A stretch of 20,000 nt of DNA. It comes from Vermamoeba vermiformis (Eukaryota). A program made the position numbers and the translations under genes. Below, piece after piece: positions 1 through 20,000 of the stretch. Below the pieces are notes generated by a model, which worked only from the letters and a program-made list of their open reading frames with translations, made no database searches and had not been told where the DNA came from. How positions within the stretch are numbered: the stretch's first letter is position 1; each line of letters begins with the position of its first letter. The stretch covers positions 172,481 to 192,480 of the forward strand of contig JBEWZL010000073.1 of assembly GCA_045837725.1 (NCBI GenBank). The letters are read 5' to 3'.

Positions 1-578
1 TGAGGACTCTTTTTAAGCCATTCTATTGCCCTCTGCCCCACTTGATAAAATTTATTGTAGGTTGTTCTAAACCAAATTAACAACAATCAAAGTATATGCC
101 AGTTATAATACCACAAACCTTAGAAATTCTTCATTAAATGATTTTGCACATATTCCTCGTTGTCTCTGCCACTCTTTCCCCTCAGCTGTAAAAAGCCCTT
201 TGTCCCCTCCGCATTCATTAATTGATTTGGAAAGCTCCTGTATTCTCCTGAAGGAAAATTCGGTATAAAAAAAAAAAGAAGTGGTATTGTCTTACCATAG
301 CTTGTTAACTCTTTGACTGTGTAAATACTTGATATCTTCTGCATTTGTTACCACTGGTATTGACTTGTTTGGCAAAATTGGGAGAAAATAATTATTTTTC
401 CGCTTTTTCCCAATCTGTTTGTATCTGATTGGTAATTGTAAGTAATCAATAATACAATTACCTCATAAAGATACCAATGAAGGCGCTTTCGTGTATATAA
501 ATAGTACCAAGTAGTAAAAAAGTTTCTCAAACAATATGCTCCAATAACTAAGCTCGTTAACAAAATATAAAAAAGCAT
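1..578 (-). CDS. Cytochrome P450, N-terminal part (runs off the left edge); exons 578-462, 414-296, 247-119, 66-<1
   Basis: Removing GT-AG introns 415-461, 248-295 and 67-118 gives an open frame: MLFYILLTSLVIGAYCLRNFF (membrane anchor)...IPVVTNAEDIKYL...GLFTAEGKEWQRQRGICAKSFNEEFLR..., which contains the P450 C-helix GLFxxEGxxWxxxR motif. The heme-binding Cys motif lies outside the window. Confidence 0.85.
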
Positions 579-805
579 TCTGGGCAATTTGATGTTTTTA
601 TGTTTCTGTGAATATTTGTGAAAAAGCAAAAAGTTGTTGAAAGAATTAGGTTTGTAGGTTAAACGGGATCTAACCTTCTGGAAAAATATTTCAATCGTTA
701 CTTATTTCAGACCAATAGTTAACAGCAATTATATTCATCTTATATAATAGTGCACATATATGCATACAAATCACATACGGCACAATCAACAATTTTTCCG
801 TTTAC

Positions 806-2124
806 TTAGTACAAAAAGTAATTATTATCCCTTCTTTCTAACTCCATAATAACAACTTGATATCGATTGTGGCGAGCTGATAGTGCACAAAAGCAGCTAA
901 TTACAGCCAATTTTTTTGCTTCAAGAGTCCATTCTGTGTGATTGGATCCCAAATTTCTAAGCCACTCCAACTCTGATCGTACAAGATCTTCCTGGCTCAT
1001 CCAACGAAGAGTTCGGAAATGGAAGTATCTTTTAAACATATCCACTTCTGCCATCGAATAGGCATTGCACTGTGGAAGACATTTTGTTTGTAGATACGAG
1101 TCTAAAAAAGAGTTTTGCCTCTGCATGGGATCGTCACAACCCCTTACCACTAACTGTAGCCATACTTTTCCTCCCGGTTTCAATAACTTATGTACTAATT
1201 TTACTGCTTTGTAACGATCATTTAGTGGAATGTGTTCAAACATTTCACAGCAAGAAATGCTATCAAACACTCCAATGCCTTTATCTTCTATGTCTAGAAA
1301 GTTTGCATAGATGGGAGTGCAATTCTCCAACTTTTCATCAGTAATTCGCTTTTCAATGTAGGCTAGCTGGTCTTTGTTGTAAACTATCCCTTTAACTTTT
1401 AAATGTGGATACCTTTTGGATGCACGCGTAATCATTGTTCCCCAACCACAACCAATATCCAAATAAGAAGTCTTTTTGTCAAGTTCCAAATACTCAAAGC
1501 ATTGGTTAACTCTTTTAGAATGGGCTTCCTCAGGAGTTTGAGAATCACTAGAAAAACTTGTGTGAGACCACATCTTTGGGGTTCCAATGAATTTTACAAT
1601 TTCCTTATATAATAAAAATTAATACTACAAGCAATTGATTTGTTCTTACATTTGAAGAATAAACCGCCAAATCAACTTTTGAATTGTTCTGCTCCCAAGA
1701 ATTTCGTTTTACATCATATGGGATACTTTGTGGAATCAATTAGCTGATGTCATGATTTTAAGGGAGAAACTTACCTGAGCAAAGCATACGCATCCATAAT
1801 GCTTAAATTCCGTATGTATTTTTCCCACTGTCCATTGCACAGACTAATAAGTTGATAGGCTTCCCAAATATCCCCATGTAAAAGAAGTTTGCCATTAGTC
1901 CATGCTTCCCAAAAAGGTCCATTATTCCCAATGGTTTTCAGATATCCTATTGCCTCAACACCAGAGAAGGACAATTTCAACTTATTTTTTGCATCACCAA
2001 AGGACAGGGGTTGGTTGAAATAATCTATTTTAATAAAAGCATTATTGATTGCAGGTTGCCAATAAGCCTTTAACAATCGATTGATGCGAGATCTTGAGTA
2101 GAAAATTTTGCTAATCAAACCCAT
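806..2124 (-). CDS. Cyclopropane-fatty-acid-synthase-like (CMAS family) SAM-dependent methyltransferase, ~407 aa; exons 2124-1775, 1725-1650, 1603-806 (alternative in-frame ATG at 2178)
   Basis: Introns 1726-1774 (GTAAGT..AAAG) and 1604-1649 (GTAAGA..TAAG) join the two ORF-track pieces in frame. Motifs: TPEEAHSKR, YLDIGCGWG, FDSISCCEMFEH, LLKPGG. Confidence 0.85.
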
Positions 2125-2711
2125 GGAGCAGTAGTTAAAAAAGAAGAACACCTTGACAAAAAAAAATAGAACAGACATGAGATAATATGTATTCAATAAA
2201 TTAAGCTAGTTTAAGTAATGTGTAGTAAAATGGGTTCCTAATAAAGGATAAAACCTGTCTGAATTTGCATTTTTTACCGCTTTAATTTTGTATTTAAAAT
2301 TTTTTCTTAACAAACATTTTTTTGAATGAAATTGACAGGGGAATAGCATTCTATTGGTTTTTTTATATTGGAATTTAGCTACTTTCGTCCCATAAAGCAT
2401 GTTTAAAGTTTAATATACCTAGTCAACTCTTAAAGTATGTTTTGAGAATCACTTATTCCTCTTTACATTATAAAGTCATTTTGTCCACTAACATATTAAG
2501 TTGGCACTCATTTATGATAAGGATAGTGTTCTTTTCTGCAGCTTCAGTAAATCAAGAAATATACCAAACAAACGTTTCATAGTGCAGCGTTTTTGGATTC
2601 CAATTTTTTTGGAATTATTTAGTAATAAGGATAATAACGCACTGTATTTCAACTAGAACTTTAATTAGAGAGAAAATTTTGTAAGCTTGCTGGTAGATGC
2701 AGAAAATTGCT

Positions 2712-4353
2712 TTACTTCTTTTGATAGGAGGAAATTATGGATGCCAAATTTTCATTTAGAACTATTGGTAATTTCGGGAATGTTTCTTGAAGTTTGCGCC
2801 ATGATCCTTCTTTGCAGATGATTGTTTTTGGAGCAGTCAGTCTTCCTCTTGCATAAAAATTTGCAAATGACTCACAAGTATCCAGAAGGTCATTTTTAAG
2901 TAATTCATCCAGTTGACTAGAGTCTACGTTGCCATCAATTGTTTCCAGATAAACCAAGTGACAGACCTTTGCAGGATCATAAAATATTCCATAGTTGCCT
3001 AAGCTAGTACCCAGAATTGAAAGTGTCTTTACCAAAGACTCCCTGTAATTGGCAACTGGTATTTGTTCACCAAAAAAATTGACCATGTCAGAAACCCTTC
3101 CGAAAAATTCAAACACTGGCATTTTGTTCTTGTAGAAGTCAACTATTTGGATGTAATCATCAGTTCGATACCGATAAAGCCCTGCATAGGTAGTAATTAT
3201 CATCAAATATACTTTTCCAAGCTCTGCATCATATATTTGCTTAATAATCCCAGTATCCTTTTCTTGCAATTCAACAAAAATTTTTCTAGGAAGGAATACA
3301 TATCGGGGGATGGGTTCTTCTAGAAAAATGTTCACTCCAATTATATCAGACTCCGTAGAACCAAACATTGGGCTCCAGATGAATACCCCAGGAGCAAGCT
3401 TCAGAAGATGAGCCTCCCAGTATTTTCCAGCCCTTGAGGTGCTGGCCATAATCATCTTTAAATTTGGCTGATATTGTGTCAATTAATTGATTCAATCATT
3501 ATCATTATTACTTTCTTACCCAAATATGCTTGGCAAATCCATCCTGTTGAAGAGACTCTCTAATTTCATCTGCCCGTTTGGGATCAGGAACAGCCAAAAA
3601 ATCTTTCAGAGGACCTTCAGGCAACTCCTCATTTATGCTTGCTGTTCCATTTTTAATGTCTTCAATAAGAGAGGATGCATTGTCCTTAATATATGTTATA
3701 AATGAAATTATGCTGGTGATAAATGTTGAACCAATCATTTGCAAGTCAGACCTTCGCAGTACACATAGAGCGCTAAGATAGCTTAAGTGTTTTTGAAGCT
3801 TATCATTCATATAAAGATCACGAGGAACTGCTAACTTCCATGAATCTGAAGGCGTCATGCAAATCTTGTACATTGTCATCTCCGTAGTGTACCATACTCG
3901 TGAAGGGTTAACAGGCTTGGATTTAAAAAGAACATGAGTGCAACCCTCAAGTGAAAAATTAGTTTTTGAAGTTAGCTCTTGAAGAGACAAAGCCAAATTC
4001 TGAAACTTTGTAGAGTATTGAACATTTGGGAAAATTTTCCGTTGCCCTGTGGTTCCTCCAGTACAAATAAAATAATCAACCTTTTCTGGAACCATTATAT
4101 TCTCCTCTCCAGAGAGCATTCTATCAACCAAAGGGCGGTATGTTTCCTCATATGCTGTTAGAGGAACTTGTTGATATTCTTCAATTGTGGTGATATGGTT
4201 TATTCCAAGCTGCTTTCCAAGAGTTGTCGATTTTCCATGTCTTAAAATATGAGACAGTGTTTGTTGAACAACCGCTTCAATATTTGCAATATCTTCATCA
4301 TAAACGCTGCGAGTGCAACTAGCTGCTGCCCAAGAGTCAAAGGCAATTGACAT
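2712..4353 (-). CDS. GH3-family acyl-adenylate-forming amido synthetase, 529 aa; exons 4353-3520, 3467-2712
   Basis: A 52-nt intron (3468-3519, GTAAGA..TCAG) restores HIW|PNLK. GH3 motifs: VPLTAYE, CTGGTTGQRKIFP, FGSTES, TTYAGLYRYRTDD, FEFFGR. Confidence 0.9.
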
Positions 4354-4476
4354 CGTTGTTTTTGTTTGTATAATTATAAGGTTTTTCTCTTATTATTACT
4401 GGAAAATATTTTATTATTAGTTGCTTCACTTAAAAAAGGCATGGCTAGTATTTAATTACCACAAAGTTGTGAAAAC

Positions 4477-4878
4477 ATGAGCCCCAGCCAAATTCTTGCA
4501 TTACTAGCAATTTCTTTTTTTGATTTGCTTGGAGCAGTTGCACTACTACTAAATCCAACATATTTTTATGATTGTAATGAACCGAAAGCATTTGAACGTG
4601 CAACACGGAGGTTAGCCCTTCTTCTTATTGGTCAATGTATGTAATTAGTAAATTTTTCTGTTAGTTAAAATGACACTTTAGGCCTTATACCATTAATTGC
4701 TATTATGGCAGAAACTACGATGTCCTTAATTTGGTTTTACTGCATTTATCACGTTGTTTTTTTGGCTGACAGCATATATGAGTACCTAAAGAAAGGAGGC
4801 TTTACCACCTTCAGAAGCAATGCAATTTTTCATGGCATATCATCAGTGGTGATTGTAATCATATTTATTTTTACGTAA
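4477..4878 (+). CDS. Small ~4-TM membrane protein, 118 aa; exons 4477-4636, 4682-4878 (missed by the ORF track)
   Basis: Intron 4637-4681 (GTATGT..TTAG) gives MSPSQILALLAISFFDLLGAVALLLNP...LALLLIGQCLIPLIAIM...LIWFYCIYHVVFLADS...AIFHGISSVVIVIIFIFT*, with four hydrophobic segments. Divergent from GH3 across 123 bp. Confidence 0.75.
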
Positions 4879-4924
4879 AATTGTTTTTCATAGCTCACAT
4901 TTCATAAAATGAACAATAGGCAAC

Positions 4925-5074
4925 TACCCCTAGGTTTTTTATGTAAGCTTCACGCTCTAGGGGTATTTCAGAACGAGGACTTCGAATTTGATGGTATTTT
5001 TAGGATAGGAAATTTTGCCTTAGGTTCTATGGATCCGGTCCCTATCCTAAATCTGCCCAAAAAATCGATTTTTT
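4925..5074. repeat. Cluster of short inverted repeats (possible TE remnant or regulatory hairpins)
   Basis: TACCCCTAG 4925-4933 / CTAGGGGTA 4957-4965; TTTAGGATAGG 4999-5009 / CCTATCCTAAA 5041-5051; palindrome AAAAAATCGATTTTTT 5059-5074. Confidence 0.5.
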
Positions 5075-5360
5075 TTGCTGGAAGTACGGGATATTCTTAG
5101 ATATATTATTTCCAACAACTTTTGTCTTAAAGATGTTTCACTCTTCAATAAATTTTTTTGGTGATCATGTTTTGAATGCAACCGGTAATAACTACTTGCA
5201 TTTATTATAAAGGGCTACCCCCAACAATTGATTAATGGAAATCCAAATTGACTATTGACAGTCAAAATAAATGAAAAAATTTAAATTTTGCCCAAAACTT
5301 AACCTAACTGGCTGAGAAAATCCCCATGGCTTTTTTTGGTAATTTGTAATATTTTATCTA

Positions 5361-7047
5361 ATGATTAGCAATCAGTATATTAAAAATTGGGTGCTTATTC
5401 CACAAGCCCTAAGGGCTAAAGATCCCTTGCCAGATGAATTGAAGTTTTTGGAAGAATGGAATGAGTTGCCAGGCTTGGGCAAGCCATCGAAGAATCTTTT
5501 TGAATTTGGAGATTTCCAATACTTAAGTAATTGACTCTCTGTTCAAATTAGTTTGATATTATAACATTTTATAGATCATGGTGCATTTGGAGTTGTTCCC
5601 CTGGATATTTTGAAGAAAATGGAAAGACTTGAAAAAATTAGGGTTGGCCTCCATAACTTTAAAATGAAAATCTAATTTATCTTGTAGAATGCCAATCCTT
5701 TTAAATTTCAAAACTACTATCTGCCATTGCTTCTTAGTTATGGCATTGCAGCATTGAGCTCGTTTGTGAAATCAGAGCCAGAATTAACTTTCTTTTGCGA
5801 GTCTGTTTGTAATGGTAAGATACTTGAGCCTTACAGTATTAAACCAACATTTTAAGGCATTTATAACTGCTTGATGACCATTATGCAACAAAAAGCTAAC
5901 CCAAGGGTGGCTTATGTCAAAGGATCTTATGGTAGGTAATCCATTTTTTTTTAATTTTTATTCTAATATCAAGTATATAAGTTGGGCTGGCATCAACTCT
6001 GGAGAGCTTAGCAGCAAAAAAAATGATTCAATTGACTCCCTTTGAATCTCAACAGCAAATTGACAGCAGCAAACTTTGTTCCTTTATTCAATGTAACAAC
6101 ATTGATGTACTTGTGCTTGAACACATAACAAATACAACTGGAGTTCTTAATAACGTTAAAGATCTTGTTAATCAAGTCAAATCTCAGTAATTAATTCACT
6201 GTAGTCAGTAATTGTGTGCTAACAAATGTTTAAGGGGAGTAATAACCATTATTGACGGTGCTCACGCCCCTGGAAACATTGACCTTGACATTGCTGGCAT
6301 CAATGCAGATTTTTATGTGGGATCATGTTATAAATGGCTGTTCAGCCTTCAAGTAAAGTAAAATCCAAGGCTACCTTATCTAACTTTGCTTAATAGGGCT
6401 GCTCGTTTGTTTGCATAAACAAAGATTGGCAAAATAAGGTACTTGTATTTGGTTTTTAAATCTCTATCTGACCTTTATTTTTCAAGTTCTCTCCACCATT
6501 TGATACTTTCATGAAGATAAACCAGCTCATTCCTTTTTACTGGAGAGGAGGAATAAATTATATGCCCTATATCTCTTGTATTTGTGGTATTAGCATGCTT
6601 AAACAGTATGGAATCCCTCAAGTTTGGCAGCATATTAAAGAAGTTAAGAACTCAATTGGTAAGTTATACCTCCTCTTATGAGATAATTATATATTTTAAC
6701 GGTTTATTAAATGAAGAAATCAATTTGACAAAGGAATGGGGAGCAGAAGTAATCAGTGCTAACGAGTTGTCATTTACTGTCCTTAAAGTAAACACTAACT
6801 TGAAAAAGGTAAGTTTGTCAAAATAAAAGTGTTTGATTAACTATTTGTCAAGAACTTAAACCTAGGAGTCTGCGCTCTTGAGATGACTGGCATTATTGCA
6901 GAAAAGCTGTCTTCTCAGATTTCAATGACAATTCCTAGCTTTTCTGAGGTTTTAGTTCGAATCTCTCTGAGTATTTACAGTACTGCAGATGACGTAAGTC
7001 AGATCCAGGATTCCTTCCTGGAAATTGTAAAGCAATTTGAAAATTAG
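5361..7047 (+). CDS. PLP-dependent class-V aminotransferase-fold enzyme (Egt2 C-S lyase / isopenicillin N epimerase / L-cysteine desulfhydrase-like), 10 exons
   Basis: Introns 5527-5574, 5643-5687, 5815-5856, 5932-5981, 6187-6234, 6353-6396, 6439-6486, 6659-6716 and 6809-6852 give a continuous frame. Motifs: YLNHGAFG, EHITNTTG, IIDGAHAPG, ADFYVGSCYKWL (PLP lysine), LVRISLSIY. Alternative start at ATG 5326 with one extra intron. Confidence 0.88.
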
Positions 7048-7202
7048 AAAGTTATAGCAGCAATAAAACTAGAACCATGTGCAAGTAAGATTTGATTGTT
7101 AGGGTTTATTGTCCTTATGAAATTTCAAATTTCATGAAACACAACTTGCAGACTATACGTACAAAATATTGCGCACTGGCACTGTGACGACTACAATTTA
7201 TT

Positions 7203-8172
7203 TTACAAATCGACTGGAATTGTTTTTGATGTGAAGTATGCTAATGTGAGGATGAGACCCTTTTCCAGTGGTATTTTTGGTGACCATTGCAGGAGTGATT
7301 TTGCTTTGTCAATATTTGGGCGTCTCATTTTTGGGTCATCGGGTCTAATGACTGGGTCTAAAAATGTGAAGGTTGACTTTGAATGGGTAAGGTCCACAAT
7401 AATATTAGCTATTTGTAAAATGGAGAGCTCCCCATCTGGGTTTCCCAGGTTCACCGGAGTGCTTTCATTTGATTGAGCAAGCAACCATAGCCCCTCTACA
7501 ATATCACTTACATAGGTGAAGCTCCTTGTTTGGTTGCCGGTTCCGTAGATAGCAAGTGGTTTATCAGTGAGGGCTTGTTTTATAAATGCAGGGACAACTC
7601 TACCATCATCTATGTTCATTCTAGGCCCAAATGTATTAAATATACGGGCTATTCTTGTTTTAAGATCAAAAGTTCGATGGTATGCCATAGTAATGGCTTC
7701 AGCATATCTTTTACTTTCATCATAACACGACCTTATGCCAATGGGATTGACATTTCCCCAATAATCTTCTGATTGAGGATGAAGGATCGGATCTCCATAC
7801 ACTTCTGAGGTTGAAGTAAGAACAAATATGGCGCTATTCTTTTTGGCAATCTCCAACATTGCTTGAGTGCCTTCCGACCCCACTTGCAATGTTTCAATGG
7901 GAAAAAGCATGTAATATTTTGGGCTTGCAAAACTAGCAAGATGAAAAACAAAGTCAAGCTTTCCTAAACTCTTCTATTACAGAGCTGCTAAGATTGCATA
8001 CATCTGCTTTGATAAAAGTAAAGAGAGGATTGGTAAGCAAATGTGAAATATTATCTTCTGTTGAGCATGCCAGATTATCCAGAACTGTCACTTTATGCCC
8101 TAGGCCTAACAAGAATTCTGCCAAATGTGAACCAATGAAACCAGCACCTCCACTTATTAAGGAAACATGCAT
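7203..8172 (-). CDS. uxs: UDP-glucuronate decarboxylase (UDP-xylose synthase)-like extended SDR, intronless, with a 1-nt frameshift near 7966-7968
   Basis: Motifs: GGAGFIGSHL, FHLASFASP, STSEVYGDP, HPQSEDYWGNVNPIG, YDESK, RIFNTFGPRM, QTRSF. Removing one T from GAG TTT AGG restores EELGKLDFVFHLAS. Confidence 0.88.
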
Positions 8173-8270
8173 TCTATTCTTATGTTTTTAATTAAAAATG
8201 GATCCAGACAAAAACTTTTCCTATTTTCTCCCCAAAATTGCATTGGCCAGGGACAATTCTCAAATATATA

Positions 8271-8912
8271 ATGACTAGTACAATAAATTGGCTGGATGTC
8301 AAAGAATTACAAGTTCAGGAGGGAACTTGCTATGAAGAAATCAGGCGATTTTATTTCGAGTATCTGTCAAAACCACATCCTATGCTAGGAAGATCTGGAG
8401 CAGTATGCCCTTTTATGCCATTATCATTAAAGTTTAACAAAGTGAAAACCCTGGTTTGGAAAAAGCAGGAATTTGATGAACAAGAGATTTTGGAGTTAAT
8501 GCAAGAAGTATTGGATGAGCTTAAACGGTGCACGATTGACTGTGCAATGGTGGTTTTCTTTCCAAATATTGTTAATACTCAAGATATTGCTTTATTTCAA
8601 GAGAAGTACAAATCTCTGGCTGTCGGAAAAGGATTGATGATTGGGGAGTTTTTTGAATCAAATCCGTCCCCTGGTTTGCACAATAAACATTGGCAGCCTC
8701 TTCAGAGCAAAGTACCTTGCTTGGCCTTTCGGAAAATGGTCAAGGAAGATTTTGCATTCATGCTTAAACCATCTTATCGGTGGTCACAAAAAGTGGTTTA
8801 CATTGCTTCTTACTTCCTTACAATGCATTCAACTGCTATCAAAAGGGTAATAATATTCGCATGCACTCTTTATTTATTTTATTTTCTTGGTTGTTTGTTA
8901 TCAGTTCAGTAA
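8271..8912 (+). CDS. DUF6875-like protein with a C-terminal hydrophobic (TM) extension, 213 aa, intronless
   Basis: YLSKPHPMLGRSGAVCPF and GLMIGEFFESNPSPGLHNKHWQPLQSKVPCLAFRKMVKEDFAFM resemble the mainly bacterial DUF6875 family as I recall it. First in-frame ATG is at 8271. Confidence 0.7.
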   Translation: MTSTINWLDVKELQVQEGTCYEEIRRFYFEYLSKPHPMLGRSGAVCPFMPLSLKFNKVKTLVWKKQEFDEQEILELMQEVLDELKRCTIDCAMVVFFPNIVNTQDIALFQEKYKSLAVGKGLMIGEFFESNPSPGLHNKHWQPLQSKVPCLAFRKMVKEDFAFMLKPSYRWSQKVVYIASYFLTMHSTAIKRVIIFACTLYLFYFLGCLLSVQ

Positions 8913-8940
8913 ATCAAAATGTGGAAAACAGCATTGCAAT

Positions 8941-9290
8941 ATTTTTCTTAGTCTCCATATGGGAGAGTCTTGTCCTCTCTGGTGAGATGAGTTTTTTAGT
9001 TATGCTGTTGCCAAACAAGGCTCGGTGAATGATATTTTCGACAAACTCTTTACAGGAATGGATGCCCACCCTCCTTTACATTATTGGCTAATATTTATTG
9101 TCGTTAAATGGGTTGACAATCCTTTGGGAGCCAGATTGCCATTCATTTTGATTGGAGTGCTACGTGGTTTTCTTCCAGCACTCTAATTGTAAGGGGCTGG
9201 GATGTCAAACAAAGTAGTATCTGCTATTTTTTTACTTTTGACTTCCATTCAACACTACTCAATTACTGGCGTCCATATCTATAATGGCAT
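8941..9290 (+). pseudogene. Degraded GT-C fold glycosyltransferase (PMT_2/ArnT-like), N-terminal fragment
   Basis: One frame reads PLW*DEFFSYAVAKQ...MDAHPPLHYWL...GARLPFILIG, containing the GT-C WxDE, DxHPPL and RLP motifs. There is an in-frame TGA at 8983-8985, a further stop at 9184-9186, and later frameshifts (HYSIT..RPY). Confidence 0.7.
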
Positions 9291-9394
9291 TAACGAAGCA
9301 TTCCATTGTCAAGCACCATTAATTGTATGGCCACAAAACTACGAAAACTAATTAACATAGTGCTGTTCTATTCCTAGTAATAATAATTATTATT

Positions 9395-9495
9395 TTAATT
9401 CTTTTTTTTCCTCTCCTTGCTTTTTCCCTTTCTTCTTTTTTTCTCTTTCCGTATATATATATATAAAAAAAGGTTTTTTTTTTTGGAAAAAAATT
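9395..9495. repeat. Low-complexity T/C tract, (TA)n microsatellite and A/T homopolymers
   Basis: Directly visible: tttttttttcctctcc..., gtatatatatatata, aaaaaaaggtttttttttttggaaaaaaa. Confidence 0.7.
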
Positions 9496-10046
9496 TGGTT
9501 CATGAAAAAAAATGAAAGCAGTTTGTTTCATGAAAGAATAACCCAGTTTTGGTTTGAATGGGTAGATAAAAAATGCCTGAAATTACACTGCTATTGATGT
9601 AAAATAATTAATTACCCAACATCATAATTGTTAATTATAAATTAGCATAGCTGCTTAATATAATAAGTATGGTGCTTTTCTGCCGAGTCCCTGAAAACAA
9701 GTTGGAATTTAAGCGTTAATTAATTATTCGTAGCATATTACTTGGATATTGCAGCAATAAATATTAACAAAAGATAGTTGTTGACTCTAAAATGAAGAAA
9801 AAATTAAGCTTATTTAATTGAAACCAACAACGACCAATCATGATCTGTTTAGATCCAAAAATTGCCTATTCTTTTTGCCGGGCAATTCAAAAAATTGCTA
9901 AGCCCTAAAAAATTACAAAAATTTGGCATGGTTCACCCTGTAATTTAGTACAAGTTCAAACAAGACTATCACATCCAAAAAAATAATGGAAAAATAAACA
10001 AAAATTAACCACCCATCCAAATAATAAGTCCGACACAGGATGTATT

Positions 10047-10383
10047 CATAGGGAGGAATTTGGCCGGGCCCTAACCCATCCAAGTGTCGAAGTCACGTTG
10101 AGGTGACTGACACGACCAAAACCATGTGATTCATCAATAGAAAGGTTGCAGGCATCAAGGCGACACCCCTCCATAAAGGAGACCGTACAACAAAAGAGTG
10201 TCCGCTACGGCAAGTGACAAGTCACTTTCTAGCCATCCAACTCAGTGCCAGTGAGAGTGCTGTTCCGAACCAGCGGTGTTGCCGAGGCAACACGACCTCC
10301 AGACGATACTCTGACCCACATCGTCGAGAATCAGCGCGTAACTTTCTCATTGTAGCGGCGCTAAGGCTTCACCCTTAGACGCC
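10047..10383. ncRNA. Candidate structured RNA / hairpin-rich GC-rich segment flanked by the 9-bp direct repeat GGATGTATT
   Basis: Stems at 10084-10113, 10212-10227, 10276-10293, 10302-10325 and 10356-10384, plus long-range CCGCTAC (10202-10208) / GTAGCGG (10352-10358). GGATGTATT at 10038-10046 and 10384-10392. No ORF in the track. Confidence 0.4.
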
Positions 10384-10439
10384 GGATGTATTACAAACAG
10401 TATTTATTATACTACCTACAGCAAGTTTGTTAACAAATT

Positions 10440-13400
10440 CTATAGTTTAAGCTTACGACAAACAGGTTTGTGTGTGTTCTTACAAGTACTGCACAGAAAA
10501 ATTGGTCTTTTTTTGTCGGAGCTGCATTTCCAACATACTGTGCTAATTTGCTTTCGTTTACGTGGGTTGCACGTTAGGCAAAAACCATTGACTCGTCTTT
10601 CAAAGACATCTTCGCTCTGAACTCGCACATGAGAAGAGAGACTTTTTGATTTCAGATCTTTTGCGACAATTATTCTTCGGGTTCTGAGAGATCTGTGTCT
10701 AGTTAACAGAGATGCATTTTTCTTGTTGCGTGCAGACTGCTCTTGACTAAGTTCATCCTTTAAAATTTGCAAGAAATCTCGAAATTGATCTTCGTCATCG
10801 TTCTGAACTTTCTTATAGTAGCGATAGCACTGGTATGAATTCCAAGTGATTATATTTATAATATTTTCCCATACTACTTGTGTCCATTTTGTTAATCTGA
10901 ATGGCCAATCAAACGTATGAATTTGTCTTGCCGCCTCGTCGACAAATCCTTTGGTCTTTGTGTATTCTTGGACAATAAGTGTCTTTGTACTCTGCATTTA
11001 CAACTAAATTAGTAACTTAATGATGCAAGCATAAGAAGCTTACTGAAGTTGACGGTACTCCTTGACACAGATCTGTCGCGGATGATGACGCTGCAATGAA
11101 ATTAGATAAACACTTTGATTAATATTGAACTAACCATCGACGTAATTGGAATAGAGATTCATAATTGCATTGTTATCGCGGAAAGAGTGAGCGATAATCG
11201 GACCAGCAGTGCCTTCTTTTTCAAACGTCAAGTGTTGCCCTGGTTCTTGTAGAGGATTTTGCAAAGTACCAAATATATATGAAGGAGCATTTTTCTTTGC
11301 CGACAACAAGAATTTAATGCCTTGTTCATCCAAAATAGTAGCCGTCTCTTCCGCACCCCATTTGCTATCTGTTATAATCACGTGGCCTGGCTTGTGATTG
11401 TTCAATTTCTCGGCTAGCTCTAACAGCTGATATTTAGGAGGCAGACATAGACCCAAGAATATATCGAAGTCCCAAATGTAGTAAGATTCATCGGCGGCCA
11501 AGTAGAGTAAGACACCGTTTGGATGTGGCTTGCTTGGAATGAATTGCTGAGTTACGTTAGTTAAAATGTATTATCTAACGATAACAAGTACTTACTCGGG
11601 CATAAAAGCGGCCCAAAAACGGCAAGATGGTTTCATCAAAGGTAATTTTTTGAGATGGAGACCAATTATTTTGGCATCGTTGAGCTACTTCTTGAGTAAC
11701 TTTGTCAATATCAAAGTGGAAATAATGCATAATCTGTTCGAATCGATCTCGGCCCATTTTTGACGATATCCATTCGTTGCCATACAAGGGATCTTTGATA
11801 GTCCAGTAATCTCTGAGGCGACGACCTTTAACACAACGACTTGCGATACCAATGGCAATGAATATATCAAATTCTGGCAGCGTAAGTGGTTTCCAATTTG
11901 TTCTTTGCTTTTGAAAAGTAACTTTGTCTTCTTCGGAAGGTTCAAACTCGGTACTAAAATATTCTTCCAAGCATGCTTTACGTTTGAAACCCAACTTGGT
12001 ACCGTTAGCAATCCTAATTGTGATCAGAATGTTTGTTTTCTCGTTAGCTTATGTAATATTTACTTTGTATTTTTGTGTCGGCCAAAGTGAGGTGAGTGAA
12101 ACGCATGCGTTCTTGCATAACTTCAGAAAATGAAAGACTGGCATAACGGTTTATATCTTCGACCATCTGTAAACGGGTTTGCTCTGCGGTATTCATTAAT
12201 TCTGAGAATATTCAACACTCGAATGAATGATATGTACCAGGCAAAAAGCGCGAAAAGATGCTAGCGTTGGTCATAGGCTGCTTATTGGTGGGCCCGCTAA
12301 CCAACGTACAAAAGGAGGTACGAACAAAACCTTTACTTGTTTTATCTCGTATTTGCCAACCTTGATTGGATAGTGCATGCGGAGATTGGAAGTACTTATT
12401 CATTATTAATAGTGCATTTGCCCGAATGTCCGACTCGCATATCCAATTTGTTTGCACCTTCTTATTTTTCCAATCGATGAGCCATTCCCATAGATCCTAG
12501 CCAAAATAAGACAAACATTCGATTATCTCGCATACGTACATTATGGAAGCGTACTTTGTAAATGCACTTGATTTGCTCAAGAGCTATTTTGCTTCCCGGT
12601 GCCACTTTATCCACCATAAGGAGATCGTCGGTTACAGCCTTAACAACAATATGCGAGTCTGGCAGCTGCCACTCCTTATCTATCGAAGGTGTCTGAAGCT
12701 TTGGTTGGCCTTTTTCCAATTGCTTGGGTTCTTAACGGTGCATTAGAATTAAATTAGCCGCGTTGCACTTACTTTTTTTAGGAGGAGCAATTAAGTTGTC
12801 TTCTGTTTCCAACAGGTTGCATGCGACACTGATTTTACGTTTCCTTGTTTGCATCGTACAGGAAGCAGGAACGGCAGTCTTCAACGGAAATTGAATGCCG
12901 ACTTCGGCTTGTTTAATGTAAACCACTGCACTGGCAGAGCAAACACCACCACTTAACTGCGAAAGAATAGCAACACGCTCCTAATTGACATTTAGTCCAA
13001 GATCGCTTGTTGGAAAAAACATACCCGTGTAACTTTAGCATCATTATAATTGTTCCAATGTAAAGCACAGCGTTCGTTGACAACAACTCCATAATGTCCA
13101 TTATTGTGAGTTTTTCCATCGTGCCAAATTACACCATAAAGTAGGTACAAAGTTCCTTCAAAGTGAACGGATGTTTCGATTGTCAAACGTCGAACTTGCT
13201 TGTGTTCATCGAGCTCGGAGAAACGATTGATTCGAATCAATAACAGTTTTGGGTGGTTCAACACCTGTTTGCGTAATTGGCAATCCTTTTTATCATTAGA
13301 TCGAGTACTTCGTTAACAAACATTGATAATAATTACCTTTGCTTGATATTCTACCACTTCCAGAGCAAAAAAATCGTCAATTCCTTGTTGAACACTCTGA

Positions 13401-14289
13401 ATGGATGGCTTAAAGTAGATGTCGATCCCTGTACTACGTTAGTTATGTGTCACAAAAACAATACGTACAGTTGATCTGCTCCACTCTTCCGTCGTTCACT
13501 TGAGTAGAATTTTCATCAAATATCGCCGTACTGAATTGGATAGCTAGTTCTCGCCGTGAATCTACCAAATTTAACAAATCTTGTAACAATAGGGTAGCGT
13601 CTTGTTGTCCAGCTTGCACAATTGTTCGTACATTAGAATCGATAGCGAGAGTAGTTGCTAGTCTTTCAAACAGAACTGCAGCATCGACCGGTTGGCTTTG
13701 TTCAACGAATTTGAGTAAATACTCGTTGACTAGCATCGCAATCTCGGTAGTTGACTGTTCAAACAGTTGCTGTAGACACGGGACCTTTGCAATAAGTACC
13801 AAGCATACGTGCAGAAAACAACGAACACTTGGGTTAACAAACCCAAATTTAAACAGTGGAGACTATCGCAGAAAATTAGGATTACTGCACAAGATTATTA
13901 TTCTTACCTCAAATTCAAATGGATATAATTGTATCTTTCCTATCTTATGCGAAGTAAAATTGCCTCTATTTTTTGGCTGGCTGTAAATTTGTTAGCACAG
14001 AAGACAGATCGACCGTCGAATTTTCTTACTTTAAAATGTTATTAATGATCGCAATAAATTCATCTTTTGCTATATTGCCGTGATATGCTTCGTAGACCCA
14101 GTGAATGTCGCCCATTGAGAGACCACGCTCATTTGTTTCGTGGAAGTGGATCAACGACTGCATGACATTTGGAGAAGCTACAAAACGTTGTAGATCGGTG
14201 TCTGAAGATACGACACATTAAAAATAATTTTTTAATAGTGCAAATAACATAGCCTTACCCGAAAAGACACGAACAAGCGACATCTGCAT
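10440..14289 (-). CDS. USP (peptidase C19)-chromodomain-piggyBac transposase (DDE_Tnp_1_7 + Cys-rich domain) fusion, ~1076 aa, 14 exons, one unresolved 1-nt frameshift between ~11900 and 12130
   Basis: Introns 14202-14258, 13981-14029, 13863-13907, 13429-13468, 13286-13336, 12981-13024, 12731-12772, 12497-12539, 12184-12237, 12014-12063, 11547-11595, 11091-11134, 10992-11043. USP: GFVNPSVRCF, GQQDA, YGVIWHDG..GHY..WNNYNDAKV. Chromo-like: EWLIDWKNKKVQTNWICESDI. piggyBac: INRYA, MGRDRFEQI..FHFD, FDETI, FIPSKPHPNG, ITDSKW, YTKTKGFVD, CLTC..CWKC..LCSTCKNTH. Confidence 0.82.
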
Positions 14290-14537
14290 CCAAAAAAAAT
14301 AGTACCTTAGTATTGGCTAAAAAATGTAGTAAATTACTCTAGAACGTCCAAATTTAATTGAGATTTAAGCCGTTTGGGTAAAATAAAAAATATGAATATT
14401 CGATTTCAAATTAGGATCGGGGTCATTTACCCTACTGAAGGCCGGCAATTGGTGGTATCTTGCAACAACATAAGCGTCGAACTGGTTCAAAACAGAAAAT
14501 GGCGAATTACTGAAGAAAAAGCACGTGAGTATTTATT

Positions 14538-16623
14538 TCAAGGAATTCCATCGAGATCACTCAGCTGGTTGAAAGCGGCAATGAATGCATTGGGATCGAA
14601 CTCAGGAACTTCAAAAAGTCCAAGCGAGCAAAGCAACACTTCATAATGGAGCTGTAGGTACTGTAGCACCAGATCCAGTGGCTGCTCGCCAAATATTGTC
14701 GCCATAGCAAGCCCACCTGCGTCACTTAACTCTAACTCATCCACAACACCGGCAACTCGTTGGTACAATTCGCAAACTTGGACCAGCAATGGATCTGCAA
14801 AACTCAGCGTCAACAAAGTGCATGATAAAAATGACTCCTCTTACTGATCGTTGGTACTGAATGAGCCAAGGGGTGTTCGCATAGGAATTTATGACGATTG
14901 AATAGCTCAAATGTGTAGAACGGCTCGACGGAGAATTCAGTGTATGCATCCAGGTTCACTCGACGAACTAACCACGTGCCTAATGAATCATTACACAAAT
15001 TGACACGGTGCGAAAGTTGCTTACCGATGAATTGGAAGACATCTTCTTGATATTCAACCGCAATTTCGAGAGGAAGACAGTGATAACAATTGAGCCGCAC
15101 CATGTCATTCCTTGCTGAATCTGCCCCGCGATTGACGACAAATGAGCCATCAATCATCGTGCCGCCCGCCCCACCAACTGTTATAACCCCCTCGCGCCAA
15201 TTACTCCAATTATTACCAGGGAAATTTTTCCGAAGTAACATCGACATACAACCTGGAGTGAATTAATCCATCGCGCCGTTTAATTTGCAGAATTGGAATT
15301 ACCTATTTGACTGAGGCCATTAAAGGAGGAGTCTATTGTTAAGCCACCAGTAAATTCTGCTTTGGCCAAATCGAACTTGGAATACAGCTCCCCAACCTGA
15401 GCTTTCGTTATTTTGATTGAAGTGATTAAACGTCAAGATTGTCACTTACTTTAAGATGTTTTCTCGGGCCGAAGATACATGATTTACCAACGGCACATTC
15501 ATGCAACTGCTCGATGAGCAAAACTCTGCAAGACGCACAATACAACAGTTGATTGTTGTGCAAAAGCAAGTGAGCAAACGCCCAACAACCTCCGGTGGGG
15601 AAAAATATATCAATCAAAGGCTTAATAGGTTCCGTATTCCGAGCCAGTCCACTGCGCGAGAGTTTTCGTTTCTTGGCATTTGTCGAAGGCCGCAGTGCTC
15701 GCCTCCACTGCATTAGCTTTTGTTTGTTGGTTGTCCAGGTCGACAAAGAATAACCAAGAGTTGTATTTGCCTCTATAAAATAATTAGTGGAAGTACAGAC
15801 TAAATATTAACAGCTTACCACAGTTGCGTTTCTCGGACTCGTAAATGTTTACATCTACATTACGAATTGTCGCCACCCAACGTATAAATCTGGAATATAC
15901 ACCGACTACTCGATGTTTCAAGTATGATTGCATTCGTTTTGGTTGTAAAAGCATCATATTGTCCACGAGCGGAATGTCAACGTCCCCTAAGCACAATGCA
16001 TTAGAAATTAATTGTTGCGTAAACAGTAACGCACTCACGAGTCCCAGTCTGCGAACGCTCCTGCACCACAAAGCGCCACCCCGGTGGGGCATCACAGTTA
16101 GCCACCAATTCATCTGGATCTACGAAACCAGAGACCGTAAACACAACAACGTCTCTTGCATTGCCCAAGTACTTGTCATCTAATTGATAAAATAAATACA
16201 AATGCAATAACAATAGTTTGTGTTGCATACTATCAGCATGCAATCCCATGGCGGGGAATACTTCTCGGTTATTTGCCCGAGCTAGTTCTATGTCATCCTC
16301 CGATAAAGGCGGATAGGCAGTAAACATTACACAAGTTGAGTGACTGCAAAAGTAGCCAAAGTCGCGCAGTTTTCGGAATAGTAGCTGGATGCACTTGGGT
16401 GTTTGATTCGTAGAATCACGGTAGAAATTGCTTCATAGTAGTTGTTAGAATAAATAAAATTGATATATTGAATCATACTTATAGGAGATACCAGTGCCAG
16501 TATTTCCGTATACTGCATACAGCCGTTTGGTAACTGCAGTCAACCGATCATTGAGGATGAGTATTCAGACTCGTCAAAAAACTGGTGATAGACCAGAATA
16601 TCAACGCCGAAAGCTGAGATCAT
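14538..16623 (-). CDS. AlkB-family 2OG-Fe(II) dioxygenase with C-terminal extension (possible SRA-like domain), ~578 aa, 8 exons, 1-nt frameshift near 16555
   Basis: Introns 16431-16478, 16180-16230, 15987-16038, 15773-15818, 15397-15449, 15253-15302 and 14795-14844 join five ORF-track fragments. Motifs: KRLYAVYGNTG..SY, MGLHADNDKYLG (HxD), IPLVDNMMLLQPKRMQSYLKHRV (distal His), RWVATIR (Rx5R). Confidence 0.78.
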
Positions 16624-17047
16624 TTCCGTAGCCCTGTGTCACGAGATCATTATAATTATATATAGCCTTAGGAGTAGGCTGGTTTAGGCTTATAGGCTTT
16701 TGACATTAAATGATGAAACTTGCCGTGTAATGCGTATACAAAATAAAAAAGTATATACAAAAATTAAAGTTTGATTGCTTATGGTTCCATGTATGCTTTT
16801 TTGAAAGACATTAATAGGAAACACCTATTAATATACTTGTATTGTGTAGTGACATCCTACAAGTTGCTGGCTGGTCTTAATGGGGAAAGAGTGAATGTGT
16901 ATACGAAACCTGTTATGTATACATAAAAATGCACCTGTGTCTCTAGGACTTGGGAAGAGAATTTGCTTTAATTTTTAAGCACATGTTAGACGAACATTAT
17001 CAATGAAACACTGAGGAGAGTTTACAGTACAAGAGAGACGTTTATTT

Positions 17048-17430
17048 TTACATAACATGTACATTTTGTAAATTGTATATACAAATTAGTTTGGTATATA
17101 CGTTCCACCGATTGTGTATACAAAATGGTGTCCCCTTCCTTTGTGCTGCCCCTTGGCGGGAATTATTGAAGAATGCATTAATTCCCCACACTACTAATGC
17201 TGTTAGTCATATATCTTACACCCCAAACCTTTCGACTTACCTTGTTGCAACAGAGGGTTTGCTGGTCCCCCTCTAGCAAACCCACGATGCGCACTTCTTT
17301 CAAACCCTCGTAAACCTCGTAGCTCGCGTGTTACGACCTAAACTAACCCTTCAGCAGTTTGGAAAAGGTAAGGTTTTACGTACCGAAATACGTTGCAGTA
17401 CTTTTTGGACTGTGGCGACAGCTGAGCGTC
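17048..17430 (-). other. Possible spliced small gene fragment or spliced non-coding transcript
   Basis: Two intron-like segments of the typical size: 17194-17240 (GTAAGT..GACTAAC..TTAG) and 17338-17383 (GTACGT..TTAG). Removing them gives an open frame AVATVQKVLQRISVVTRELRG...NVHVM*, but no convincing start codon was found. Confidence 0.3.
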
Positions 17431-17852
17431 AACAGGCCAGGTTTGATTTCAAAGCATGCTACACTTGAATTTCGCCGTGTAGTGCGTCACTTGAGTGATG
17501 TAAAACCTGAATCCAAAACACAGTAATAGAAAATTATTCGTAGTTGTAAGTCGTTCCTAAGTCTTACACGCTATTAACGATGTTAAGTGGGTGGATATTC
17601 ATTTAATAATAAAAAATTATTCCAGAAGTAACGGTGAAATGAAAAATATTTTATTGACGTCAGTATGTCAGACTGCCAGTCACGAATTAAAGTACCTTAT
17701 AATCCGTTTCCGAGACAGCTTTGTGCAGTACATTGAAATTTAATTGGTTTGTTCCAAAGAGCTCTGGTTGTAAAGGCTTAGACACGGTAACAAAAAAACG
17801 AGGAAAAAAATTAAGTTTTTTAACTTCAAACAACAAAACACGACCACAAACC

Positions 17853-18146
17853 ATGGACTGGAACCCAGTAAATTACCCCACCTGCAGTTGCATCAGAGTT
17901 TGCGTTACCGACGCTGAAAACCGCAAGTATGTACGACTCTCCGTTGAAGAGGCAAGACCGTTGGTTCAACTTGCTCCAGCAACTGCACTTGACCAAGTGA
18001 TCTACGAGGCATGGGCTATAACCAAAGCTGGAAAAGTCTGGATCCGAGCCGAGCTACACAAAGAAGCTCCTATAGTCTCCCATGTTCTTCCATGGAACAG
18101 CGATCTCTTTTCCAATGTCATTGTATTCTCCACTTTATTTGAATAA
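17853..18146 (+). CDS. Hypothetical protein, 97 aa (MDWNPVNYPTCSC...)
   Basis: ATG in ACCATGG context after a CA-rich leader, GC-richer than its flanks, stop codon overlapping AATAAA. No recognisable family. Confidence 0.5.
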   Translation: MDWNPVNYPTCSCIRVCVTDAENRKYVRLSVEEARPLVQLAPATALDQVIYEAWAITKAGKVWIRAELHKEAPIVSHVLPWNSDLFSNVIVFSTLFE

Positions 18147-18579
18147 ATCAATTTTCTAATTACTTGGTTAATTATGATCGTGAGCCTCTTTTTTCGTATA
18201 TATTATGATATGTGTATACAAAATAATGTACACACCGAAATAGCTTTCGGATCTGAACAAGAAGTGAATGTTCTTATTAATCATTCTGTAATAAGTCGTT
18301 GTTTTACATCAAACAATACATAGAAGATTAAATATAAAATTGTGAATTATTCGCTAAAAATCTCGCGTAAAATCTCGATCATCGTGTCGGAGTTCAATTC
18401 ATCAATTCCTACCTCTGAAAAATGTCCTCCCAATCAATTGTATTTATTACATCCATTTCGTCATAATAATTATTAACGGGCACCTAAATTAATAATAGAA
18501 AGGGTACTGCAGTACGAAAGAGAGCAGGTAAATTTTGTATACCAGAAATTTAGTGTACACAGTATTCTGTGCGCACTAT

Positions 18580-19421
18580 TTATTTGGCGGTTTTAAAGGA
18601 GTTCCAATCCGTACAAAATACAATCGATTGCCTATCTCCTTCAACAACAGGAAGGTTCTCGTGCAGCATCTTCTGCGATTGGAAGAAAATGACGTCGCCC
18701 TTTTCAAAGTGGATGCGGATCTTCTCGTCTCGGAAGACCAAATCTCCTCCTGTGAAGTTTCCAAATGGTAGAACGCAACACAAGCCATCAGGACGATCCA
18801 TGTGGTCGTAATGAGGGCCTGTTGTTCCCCAGTTGACGACGCACATTGAAAACGACTTGCCAACAAGTCGCGGGCCCGGAGTCTCCACGTCGCAGTATTC
18901 CTCGTACAGCTTCTTGCTCGTCTGCTTGAACAGCTTGTCCACTATTCTGAACAGCTCCATGTTCAGCACGTTGTAAAAGAATCTGCCACCTTGCTTAATG
19001 CAGCAGGCCATTCCGTCGCGCGAAAGGAACTGGCGTTTACGGTAACGCCGCCAATAACCGAGATGGTAGCTTCTGGTGTTGCGGCAAGCAGGACGACCGA
19101 TGGCCAGTTTGAGGGCACGAGAAGATTTCACTAAGTTGTTACAATACTTGAGAGGAATTTTCTTTTTGAAAAAACGGATGGCCACATTGCCTTCGGCATC
19201 CCAAAAAATAAAGCTAATATTATTAAATTAAAATAAGCACGTGTAAAATAATACTATAAAAATGCTACTTACTCGTCGTTAACTACCTGAAATTCTTTGA
19301 GGATAGGGTCATCGGCCGAGAGTGGTTGCACGTTCGGATCAAGTTTTCGCCTTGATTTCAAAATTATCTTACGCCTGAATACCTGACGGATGCGCCCGCG
19401 ACGTAAATTCTTGAGACCCAT
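18580..19421 (-). CDS. TET/JBP-family 2OG-Fe(II) nucleic-acid dioxygenase, 260 aa; exons 19421-19273, 19213-18580
   Basis: Intron 19214-19272 (GTAAGT..TTAG) gives an intact frame. Motifs: FSMCVVN, PHYDHMD (HxD), CCVLPFGNFTGGDLVF, KGDVIFF..MLHENLPV (distal His), GDRQSIVF (R..S, not the AlkB Rx5R). Basic, NLS-like N-terminus. Confidence 0.82.
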
Positions 19422-19925
19422 GCGTGCGTACTCAACAAAAAAAACTTATGTGGTGGACGGTGTAAGCGAAAATAAACTTTAGCCTACACAAAATCTCGTG
19501 TGAGATACACGAAACTAACCGTTGTGCATATACAGAATGTTTGGTTTTCTGGTATGCACAGAACAATTTTTTTAAGTAACGAATGAACGTAACCACCTGG
19601 CGCGGTCAGTATGTTTAAACAGTCAAGCAGATCCCGGTGATGGCCTTTTTTGGTAAAATTGAAGTTCGCTTCGGTATCTTCGTACTATCACGGGAAAATC
19701 AATTGTAAGTAATTTAAAACTGTTTGCCGTAGTGTGCCCGCAGCTTAAATGCACGGGAACCCGGGAAAAAATATTGTCAAAATAGCGCATCGGGAATAAA
19801 TTCGTAAAAATTTTTAAACTCCCAAAGATCGCATCTTCTTTGCAAATTTAATCCAAAATCCACTTCTTAACGATGCAGAAAATAGCAGTATTGGGCATGA
19901 ACAGCCGAAAACTGTGCAACACATT

Positions 19926-19943
19926 GTTTCGTGTACACGAAAC
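19926..19943. promoter_or_regulatory. Perfect 18-bp palindrome GTTTCGTGTACACGAAAC
   Basis: Self-reverse-complementary; shares the GTRYAC core of the dispersed motif. Confidence 0.45.
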
Positions 19944-20000
19944 GCCTCGATAACTCAAAGTGGTGAGTGATTGGCCCGTTGCCTTTTGAACAACGGACCA

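Follow-up and report, generated by a model that had tools for sequence, protein, structure and literature searches.

Can one gene encode a ubiquitin-specific protease (USP), a chromatin-reader fold and a piggyBac transposase in a single protein, and does such a gene serve a transposon or the cell that carries it? These questions are raised by a stretch of 20,000 nucleotides (nt) of Vermamoeba vermiformis DNA (assembly GCA_045837725.1, contig JBEWZL010000073.1, positions 172,481 to 192,480), referred to below as the window, whose own positions are used throughout. A preliminary description, made from the letters alone, had placed all three modules in one spliced gene at 10440-14289. Our analysis upholds the single gene, and we consider it likely that it encodes a fusion transposase of the piggyBac superfamily, carried by a transposon that is autonomous now or was so until recently.

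Structure and splicing of the fusion gene

The fusion gene occupies the minus strand (14289-10440) from its ATG at 14289-14287 to a TAG at 10442-10440. The spliced model has 14 exons. Its 13 introns, all GT-AG and 40-88 nt long, include several with CTAAC- or CTAAT-like branch sites, and the 3189 coding bases, without stops or frameshifts, give an open frame of 1063 amino acids (aa). The model bears out the canonical splicing in one frame and reproduces exactly the outer coordinates of the preliminary description. In order, the protein consists of a conserved N-terminal region, a USP (peptidase class C19), a chromo-like module, a piggyBac core with three catalytic aspartates (DDD) and a Cys-rich tail.

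To place the exon borders we drew on sequencing records, on proteins from a sequence library (handles beginning with P), on structures in the Protein Data Bank (PDB) and on a relative of the gene. The relative is represented by three loci (L001, L002 and L003) that were obtained by scanning metagenome contigs with a 3-row alignment; they come from three metagenome records and overlap at ~99% identity. In a tblastn search the spliced model matched L001 over aa 1-562 and L002 over aa 143-1054, colinearly and at 35-67% identity, and the relative is colinear with the window gene from start codon to stop. The exons are as follows.

14259-14289, minus strand: exon 1 (31 nt, with the start codon), from sequence and model; exon 1 of the relative is also 31 nt, in the same phase
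14030-14201, minus strand: exon 2, conserved N-terminal region of unknown family; from the model, donor confirmed by the joint 13980|14030 in run X1
13908-13980, minus strand: exon 3 (73 nt); both borders lie in one X1 record, 13841-13862|13908-13980|14030-14085
13469-13862, minus strand: exon 4, USP Cys box (Cys codon 13820-13818) and QQD box; Pfam UCH and alignment to P0027
13337-13428, minus strand: exon 5, middle of the USP domain; from the model, intron position and phase as in L002, 66% identity by tblastx
13025-13285, minus strand: exon 6, USP His box (His 13096-13094, Asp 13042-13040); Pfam UCH and the USP21 and USP2 chains
12773-12980, minus strand: exon 7, USP domain end followed by a basic RKRK linker; start placed by the conserved ER..LS.LSGG
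12540-12730, minus strand: exon 8, linker and first chromo-like strand (from ~12584); intron 8 position and phase as in L002, gapless alignment to P0014
12238-12496, minus strand: exon 9, rest of the chromo-like module (12496-12386) and transposase start (IFSRFLP); open frame, 44% identical to L002
12064-12183, minus strand: exon 10, transposase N-terminal helix region (INRYA); acceptor 12184/12183 from the X1 joint
11596-11975, minus strand: exon 11, piggyBac core with the first Asp (11637-11635); Pfam and piggyBat 9c0f
11135-11546, minus strand: exon 12, piggyBac core with the second Asp (11369-11367); Pfam, 67-78% identical to L002
11044-11090, minus strand: exon 13 (47-nt mini-exon), required by the frame; the relative reads through an equal length, without intron 13
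10440-10991, minus strand: exon 14, third Asp (10940-10938), Cys-rich tail (10580-10458) and stop (10442-10440); alignment to 6x67, and Pfam

The start of exon 7 was set at 12980 because ER..LS.LSGG is kept in P0003, P0009 and L002; a later acceptor, which gives a 1055-aa model, was dropped, as the residues that it omits are kept in those three sequences. Intron 9 was set at 12237-12184 because an X1 record joins 12183 to 12238, and a start of exon 10 at 12201 was replaced accordingly. The spacing of exon 10 is equal in the relative. The acceptor of intron 10, which no read crosses in the window, is the least certain border in both the window gene and the relative.

Four sequencing runs (X1, X3, X4 and X6) were aligned to positions 7000-16500. 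Run X1 is a public data set of contigs that can only be presumed to derive from RNA; it provided four 151-nt records, at depth 2. Two of them fall within exonic sequence (exons 11 and 4), and the other two are spliced (12158-12183|12238-12362 and the record listed under exon 3). They show removal of introns 2, 3 and 9, 3 of the 13, with joints that read CT..AC on the plus strand, which is GT..AG on the minus strand. The joint of exons 9 and 10 falls inside the start of the transposase domain, so that IFSRFLP and INRYA are connected in one frame as had been proposed. Run X3 (RNA-Seq contigs) covers 11227-11497 within exon 12. Runs X4 (0 reads) and X6 (1 read) leave the neighbouring housekeeping-type genes bare too and constitute no test of expression.

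Unity of the gene

Identity between the window gene and the relative is highest in the piggyBac core (64-67%) and lowest in the N-terminal region (35%); the USP has 40-50%, the chromo-like module ~46% and the tail 51%. In the relative, both catalytic triads (USP Cys, His and Asp; three piggyBac Asp) and the cysteines of the tail are retained, and eight introns lie at the same place and in the same phase as in the window gene (between exons 4/5, 5/6, 6/7, 7/8, 8/9, 9/10, 11/12 and 12/13). P0014, a more distant protein of 330 aa, contains a USP His box, an acidic linker, a chromo-like stretch and a transposase-start-like motif in one intronless frame, and the end of window exon 8 and the start of exon 9 align to it continuously across the splice junction.

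These data bear on whether two neighbouring genes, one for a USP (perhaps with the chromo-like part) and a separate one for the piggyBac transposase, have been joined by an artefact of splice-site choice. Introns 4-8 are spanned by no read, a retained intron 7 puts a stop at 12734-12732, and short GT..AG pairs arise easily by chance. On the other side, the end of the chromo-like module and the start of the transposase share one unbroken exon (exon 9), which is spliced to exon 10 in X1; introns 6, 7 and 8 have the position and phase of their counterparts in L002; in P0014 the USP His box and the chromo-like part lie in one frame that no intron or stop interrupts; and neither a start-codon context nor a spacer is conserved between the modules. 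Splicing, conserved junctions and the P0014 frame together make two separate genes very unlikely, and we give that arrangement hardly any credence. The claim of a single gene running from USP through a chromo-like part to piggyBac stands on its open frame, its three spliced introns, the order and introns of the relative and the frame of P0014.

The USP module

Pfam scans were run on single exons and frames, and the pieces between the UCH and DDE_Tnp_1_7 matches gave nothing. The family UCH (PF00443) was matched on 12992-13312 (E 6e-9), and in the corresponding His-box exon the His of GHY and the Asp of ND align with PDB chains of USP21 (3i3t) and USP2. Over its full length, the spliced USP part can be aligned with P0027, which Pfam assigns to UCH (E 7.5e-23, profile 2-241), and catalytic Cys falls on catalytic Cys. 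The USP Cys and His boxes that had been read from the sequence are therefore both present. On these alignments, the module is a compact, predicted USP-class cysteine protease with an intact catalytic triad.

A search of the protein library with the His-box exon returned 47 proteins at E <= 0.001. The best matches, P0001 (54% identical) and P0003 (59%), are short frames read through introns, and the long matches carry USP domains in tandem, 2 to 10 per protein. Such tandem-USP proteins (P0002, P0004, P0005, P0006 and P0042) are among the nearest relatives; P0002 has up to 10 USP domains in 3205 residues.

The N-terminal region and the chromo-like module

The N-terminal region (aa 1-92) is ~35% identical to the relative, and its exon 2 gave no Pfam match. 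For the chromo-like stretch, a search with a 2-row profile found no sequence match in the PDB. A single-sequence fold of P0014 had a predicted local distance difference test (pLDDT) value of 33 and was unusable, whereas a model built from a 7-row alignment reached pLDDT 61-85 over residues ~204-272, with strands at 222-231, 234-241 and 249-254 and a helix at 260-272. Chromo or chromo-shadow domains make up 8 of its 10 best matches in a Foldseek search against the PDB (template modelling score by target 0.35-0.68, E 0.33-0.85). The exon 8/exon 9 join of the window gene aligns to this modelled stretch, and inspection by eye places one conserved Trp (..DWK..) in the strand expected for a methyl-lysine aromatic cage. 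The "chromodomain" of the preliminary description thus survives in part: a three-strand-plus-helix fold is predicted in a medium-confidence model, and a profile match is lacking. We therefore call the module chromo-like, a designation with weak support from modelling, and not a proven chromodomain.

The piggyBac transposase domain

The piggyBac family DDE_Tnp_1_7 (PF13843) was matched on 11575-12048 (E 1.2e-16, profile 28-144), on 11130-11570 (E 5.8e-8, profile 144-282) and, below the cut-off, on 10440-10997 (E 8.7e-4, profile 298-349). Exon 11 matches the piggyBat structure 9c0f at 8e-8, with the Asp of FDET aligned. The Asp of ITDS (11369-11367) lies within the stretch matched by Pfam and is placed by the profile match and not by residue alignment. 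Exon 14 aligns with residues 432-593 of Trichoplusia ni (T. ni) piggyBac (6x67), where the Asp of GFVD falls on that of GGVD, known as D447 (PMC7351741), and the tail cysteines (10580-10458) fall on residues ~553-593. All three Asp motifs, like these cysteines, are kept in L002. In T. ni piggyBac the active site is formed by D268, D346 and D447, and its Cys-rich domain binds a palindromic internal repeat (PMC7351741). The three catalytic Asp and the Cys-rich tail noted at the outset were each recovered, by Pfam, 9c0f, 6x67 and L002.

A probable two-gene mobile unit

The relative is enclosed by an 18-nt perfect inverted repeat (L003 124-141 and L002 3972-3989; blastn-short, E 2.9e-5). Its inner tips read CCC.../...GGG, L002 ends exactly at the repeat, and the unit between the repeats measures ~7.8 kb and holds two genes. 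Besides the fusion gene, the window contains the following counterparts of this unit.

14538-16659, minus strand: gene A, the upstream partner, multi-exon and of unknown family; colinear by tblastx with L001 855-2638 and L003 1111-2897
10042-10439, minus strand: conserved non-coding 3' part; aligns to L002 3371-3741
10356-10384, minus strand: palindrome ~55 nt past the stop, left arm at 10372-10383 (plus strand); from motif and DNA fold

Gene A is conserved at 30-88% across the tblastx pieces and spans 442-3297 in L003. It is transcribed, as seen in X3 records at 15052-15245 and 16302-16430|16479-16500, the latter spliced across a 48-nt intron. The spacer between gene A and the fusion gene is 248 nt in the window and ~106 nt in the relative. 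No Pfam family and no Atlas match was found for gene A, and in the PDB only a zinc-finger stretch of DNMT3A appeared, at E ~0.4-1. Gene A is probably the second gene of the same mobile unit. Matches to TNP-like_RNaseH_C (E 0.061), Tudor_FRX1, LTI65, FANCM and HAP2 were treated as noise.

In the non-coding 3' part, the best block (10124-10042 against L002 3662-3741) is 78% identical over 83 nt by blastn. This block contains GGGTTAGGGCCC, which resembles one and a half telomere-type repeats. Searches of the window and L002 gave no Rfam match at E <= 1, and a tRNA scan gave none. The window palindrome folds at -11.1 kcal/mol (z -3.9), and none of 200 shuffles did as well; L002 has a palindrome at the aligned place (~3421-3448) with other letters in its arms and a weaker score (z -1.0, 29 of 200 shuffles as good). 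The palindrome may serve to bind the Cys-rich tail, or it may form a hairpin at the 3' end.

We found no similarity of the window to the relative beyond ~16659 on one side and 10042 on the other. On the left, the alignment to L003 shows no homology upstream of gene A, and no left end was found; on the right, the window has no counterpart to the last ~240 nt of the relative. The 12-mer at 10372-10383, which resembles the relative's repeat, was considered as the true right end and ruled out, for homology to L002 runs 330 nt further. At 17344-17362 (plus strand), TAACCCTTCAGCAG... looks like the tip of a piggyBac element (a TTAA-like word, then CCC) that is directed away from the fusion gene; this is probably a chance likeness, as the only partner found sits inside a GH3 gene (pair I24).

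The right border of homology coincides with a switch in base composition at ~10031-10065. In 500-nt bins, the observed/expected ratio of CpG is <= 0.64 in 20 of 20 bins of 1-10000 and >= 0.76 in 20 of 20 bins of 10001-20000. Repeats are usually CpG-depleted, and the window boundary shows the reverse. The CpG-normal block runs to the end of the window, and the CpG-poor side holds host-type genes. The three versions of the relative differ mostly by transitions at CpG, which account for 8/9, 5/6 and 15/16 of the transitions; such CpG-to-TpG/CpA differences are a mark of cytosine methylation. At the start of exon 6, L002 has a nonsense TGA where L001 and L003 have CGA. The upstream partner gene, the lack of recognisable ends and the composition boundary near ~10040 were absent from the preliminary description.

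Transposon, host gene or remnant

We favour a transposon-encoded fusion transposase because of the inverted repeats of the relative, the CpG transitions among its versions and the composition switch in the window. By analogy with its family, the DDD core and Cys-rich tail would carry out cut-and-paste transposition, with the tail binding the ends. The first ~550 residues, made up of the ~90-residue conserved region, the USP, a basic/acidic linker and the chromo-like three-strand-plus-helix module, would take the place of an N-terminal region that is disordered in T. ni piggyBac. The chromo-like module would dock the enzyme on chromatin and the USP would remove ubiquitin in cis, either from the transposase itself or a partner protein, which it would stabilise, or alternatively from repair proteins or surrounding chromatin at either the donor or the target site. 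The preliminary description had suggested that the USP could shield the transposase from degradation or remove ubiquitin from target nucleosomes. The fusion gene would travel with the conserved upstream gene. The window copy has an intact, spliced frame; the final ~240 bp, including the right end, appear to be absent from it, whether lost or never acquired, so it may no longer move by itself.

Several observations weigh against a transposon-encoded, three-module transposase. As to mobility, the tips of the relative are flanked on both sides by ATAT and not by TTAA; these letters may belong to the repeat, and L002 ends there. Repeat searches within the window revealed neither a terminal inverted repeat nor a TTAA duplication at the window copy: the best TTAA-flanked pair scores 10/16, inside the shuffle range of 9-12, and a general repeat search together with blastn-short of the two window flanks gave only AT-rich words of 10-13 nt. 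In the window, the relative's repeat has one good match, 11 of 12 letters at 10372-10383, which lies within the region of homology. L001-L003 could be strains and not copies. As to the protease, the Pfam UCH match over the Cys box (13443-13862, profile 2-108) has an E-value of only 0.032, below the curated cut-off; the Cys-box exon alone has no PDB match; and P0027 has Asn three residues past the catalytic Cys, a position occupied by His in the window gene. Pfam Chromo is absent from exons 8 and 9, from the L002 exons and, at E <= 5, from the uninterrupted P0014, and every Foldseek E-value of the P0014 model is at least 0.33. RNA support is thin, no X1 or X3 record crossing introns 1, 4-8 or 10-13. 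Finally, the full-length fused protein is in no database searched, and DDE_Tnp_1_7 occurs in none of the 19 of the 47 library matches scanned with Pfam, including 12 long ones. Word-based protein searches with the His-box exon, piggyBac exon 11 and P0014 found no longer fused relatives, which is weak evidence.

Part of this pattern would also fit a domesticated host gene, that is, an immobile piggyBac-derived USP/chromo-like fusion serving its host in the manner of PGBD genes or ciliate excisases. The frame is intact although the window copy lacks recognisable ends, the gene is spliced and apparently expressed, gene order and intron positions are kept at ~50% protein divergence, as fits orthologous host loci, and a short intergenic spacer (248 nt against ~106 nt) is conserved in kind. 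What tells against domestication is the perfect 18-nt inverted repeat with CCC/GGG tips that bounds the relative, at a contig break, together with the nonsense codon in one of three near-identical versions, the sharp difference in CpG between the block of the unit and the adjacent host genes, and the end of window-relative similarity at ~16659 and 10042. We regard domestication as unlikely, while taking it as the most serious of the competing explanations. The missing ends also raise the prospect of a dead remnant, a decaying and immobile copy in which the protease module is inactive and the open frame no more than a vestige of the recent past. The relative's right terminal ~240 bp and a left end are both missing, the Cys-box region is weakly conserved with an unusual His near the Cys, and the model shows no zinc-ribbon cysteines, which many USPs carry. 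Decay of this kind is hard to reconcile with 3189 coding bases free of stops and frameshifts, with catalytic residues that are all kept in both lineages, and with the existence of spliced records, and we judge a dead remnant to be quite improbable.

Neighbouring genes

The other genes recognised in the window are listed below; the first four are ordinary-looking neighbours.

806-1618, minus strand: CMAS-type methyltransferase
2712-4389, minus strand: GH3-family enzyme (N-terminal and central domains)
7203-7973, minus strand: NAD-dependent epimerase/dehydratase
8196-8912, plus strand: DUF6875 protein
18580-19227, minus strand: frame of 215 codons matching the TET/JBP type of 2OG-Fe(II) oxygenases (Tet_JBP at 2.4e-7, below the cut-off; 2OG-FeII_Oxy_3 at 6.7e-6)

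The TET/JBP-like frame shares its strand and the CpG-normal block with the fusion gene and has no likeness to gene A.

Relation to known systems

With respect to T. ni piggyBac (6x67/6x68; PMC7351741) and piggyBat (9c0f), the fusion protein has a DDE_Tnp_1_7 core, aligned Asp residues and a C-terminal Cys-rich domain. The ends of the relative begin with CCC as in T. ni piggyBac, and a palindrome is again found near the 3' side of the window gene. T. ni piggyBac carries a disordered acidic stretch of 117 residues (PMC7351741) where the fusion protein has ~550 N-terminal residues with a USP and a chromo-like part. Thirteen introns, a second gene, the ATAT in place of TTAA at the relative and the absence of ends in the window copy further set the locus apart from both T. 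ni piggyBac and piggyBat.

Proteases of this kind on other transposons had been put forward as a precedent, and the literature bears this out: Ulp1 or OTU domains occur on Ginger1 and Mutator transposases, and the ubiquitin pathway has been proposed to act in transposition (PMC2836005). These proteins likewise combine a cut-and-paste DDE transposase with a papain-fold cysteine protease of ubiquitin/SUMO type in one polypeptide; they differ in belonging to other superfamilies, in using a CE clan Ulp1 or an OTU protease, and in carrying it at the C-terminus, whereas the USP is N-terminal here. Closer in protease class is the Trichomonas vaginalis protein XP_001314237.1, in which a Peptidase C19 (the USP class) is joined to a DDE transposase domain of IS4/IS5 type, transposase_11 (PMC2836005); this domain is pfam01609 and not DDE_Tnp_1_7, and its description there mentions no chromo-like part. 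Our literature search, with supplementary tables outside its scope, found no paper joining a USP/UCH or a chromodomain to piggyBac. The "unusual" USP on a piggyBac transposase therefore holds for the piggyBac superfamily in the papers found, and yields to the Trichomonas protein for the pairing of C19 with a DDE transposase. Helitron and Helentron proteins also encode a deubiquitinase (VTD/OTU) within their main mobility protein, where it has been suggested to prevent proteasomal loss of transposition proteins (PMC9741609); that protein is a rolling-circle RepHel and not a DDE enzyme, and the protease belongs to another family with another active-site layout.

Host-piggyBac fusion genes such as CSB-PGBD3 exist as well (PMC12062965). 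There too a piggyBac domain is spliced downstream of another protein; CSB-PGBD3 is domesticated, fixed and arose by exon capture, whereas here the fusion partner, the introns and the partner gene are common to relatives, one of which lies between inverted repeats. What is new is the combination of USP, chromo-like module and piggyBac transposase; ubiquitin-type proteases on transposases are already known.

For the chromo-like part, a parallel is provided by the Ty3/gypsy "chromoviruses", in which an integrase chromodomain is thought to steer insertion into marked chromatin. They share a chromatin-reader fold on an integrase or transposase of RNase-H fold; they are retroelements with the domain at the C-terminus, whereas here the predicted fold is weakly supported and its binding pocket putative. 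One speculative extension, which we think is probably wrong, is that of a living two-gene piggyBac family whose reader would pick marked chromatin and whose USP would erase a ubiquitin mark (on histones, on repair factors or on the transposase itself) by which the host blocks or punishes transposition, thereby acting as a counter-defence; the CpG-normal block, beside a TET/JBP-like gene and within a CpG-poor host region, would then reflect escape from, or the undoing of, methylation silencing.

Built-in ubiquitin/SUMO proteases recur in unrelated superfamilies (Mutator, Ginger1 and Helitron/Helentron). To our knowledge, the role of such transposase-borne proteases has been demonstrated by no one. 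A piggyBac version is of interest since the biochemistry, structures and excision and integration assays of piggyBac are mature, and point mutants could probe the fused deubiquitinase and reader directly. If it is true that these modules stabilise the protein or steer its insertion, they would be relevant to users of piggyBac for gene delivery. The conserved gene A, as a probable second gene of the unit, would mean that piggyBac elements can be multi-gene outside Teratorn, the one known giant case.

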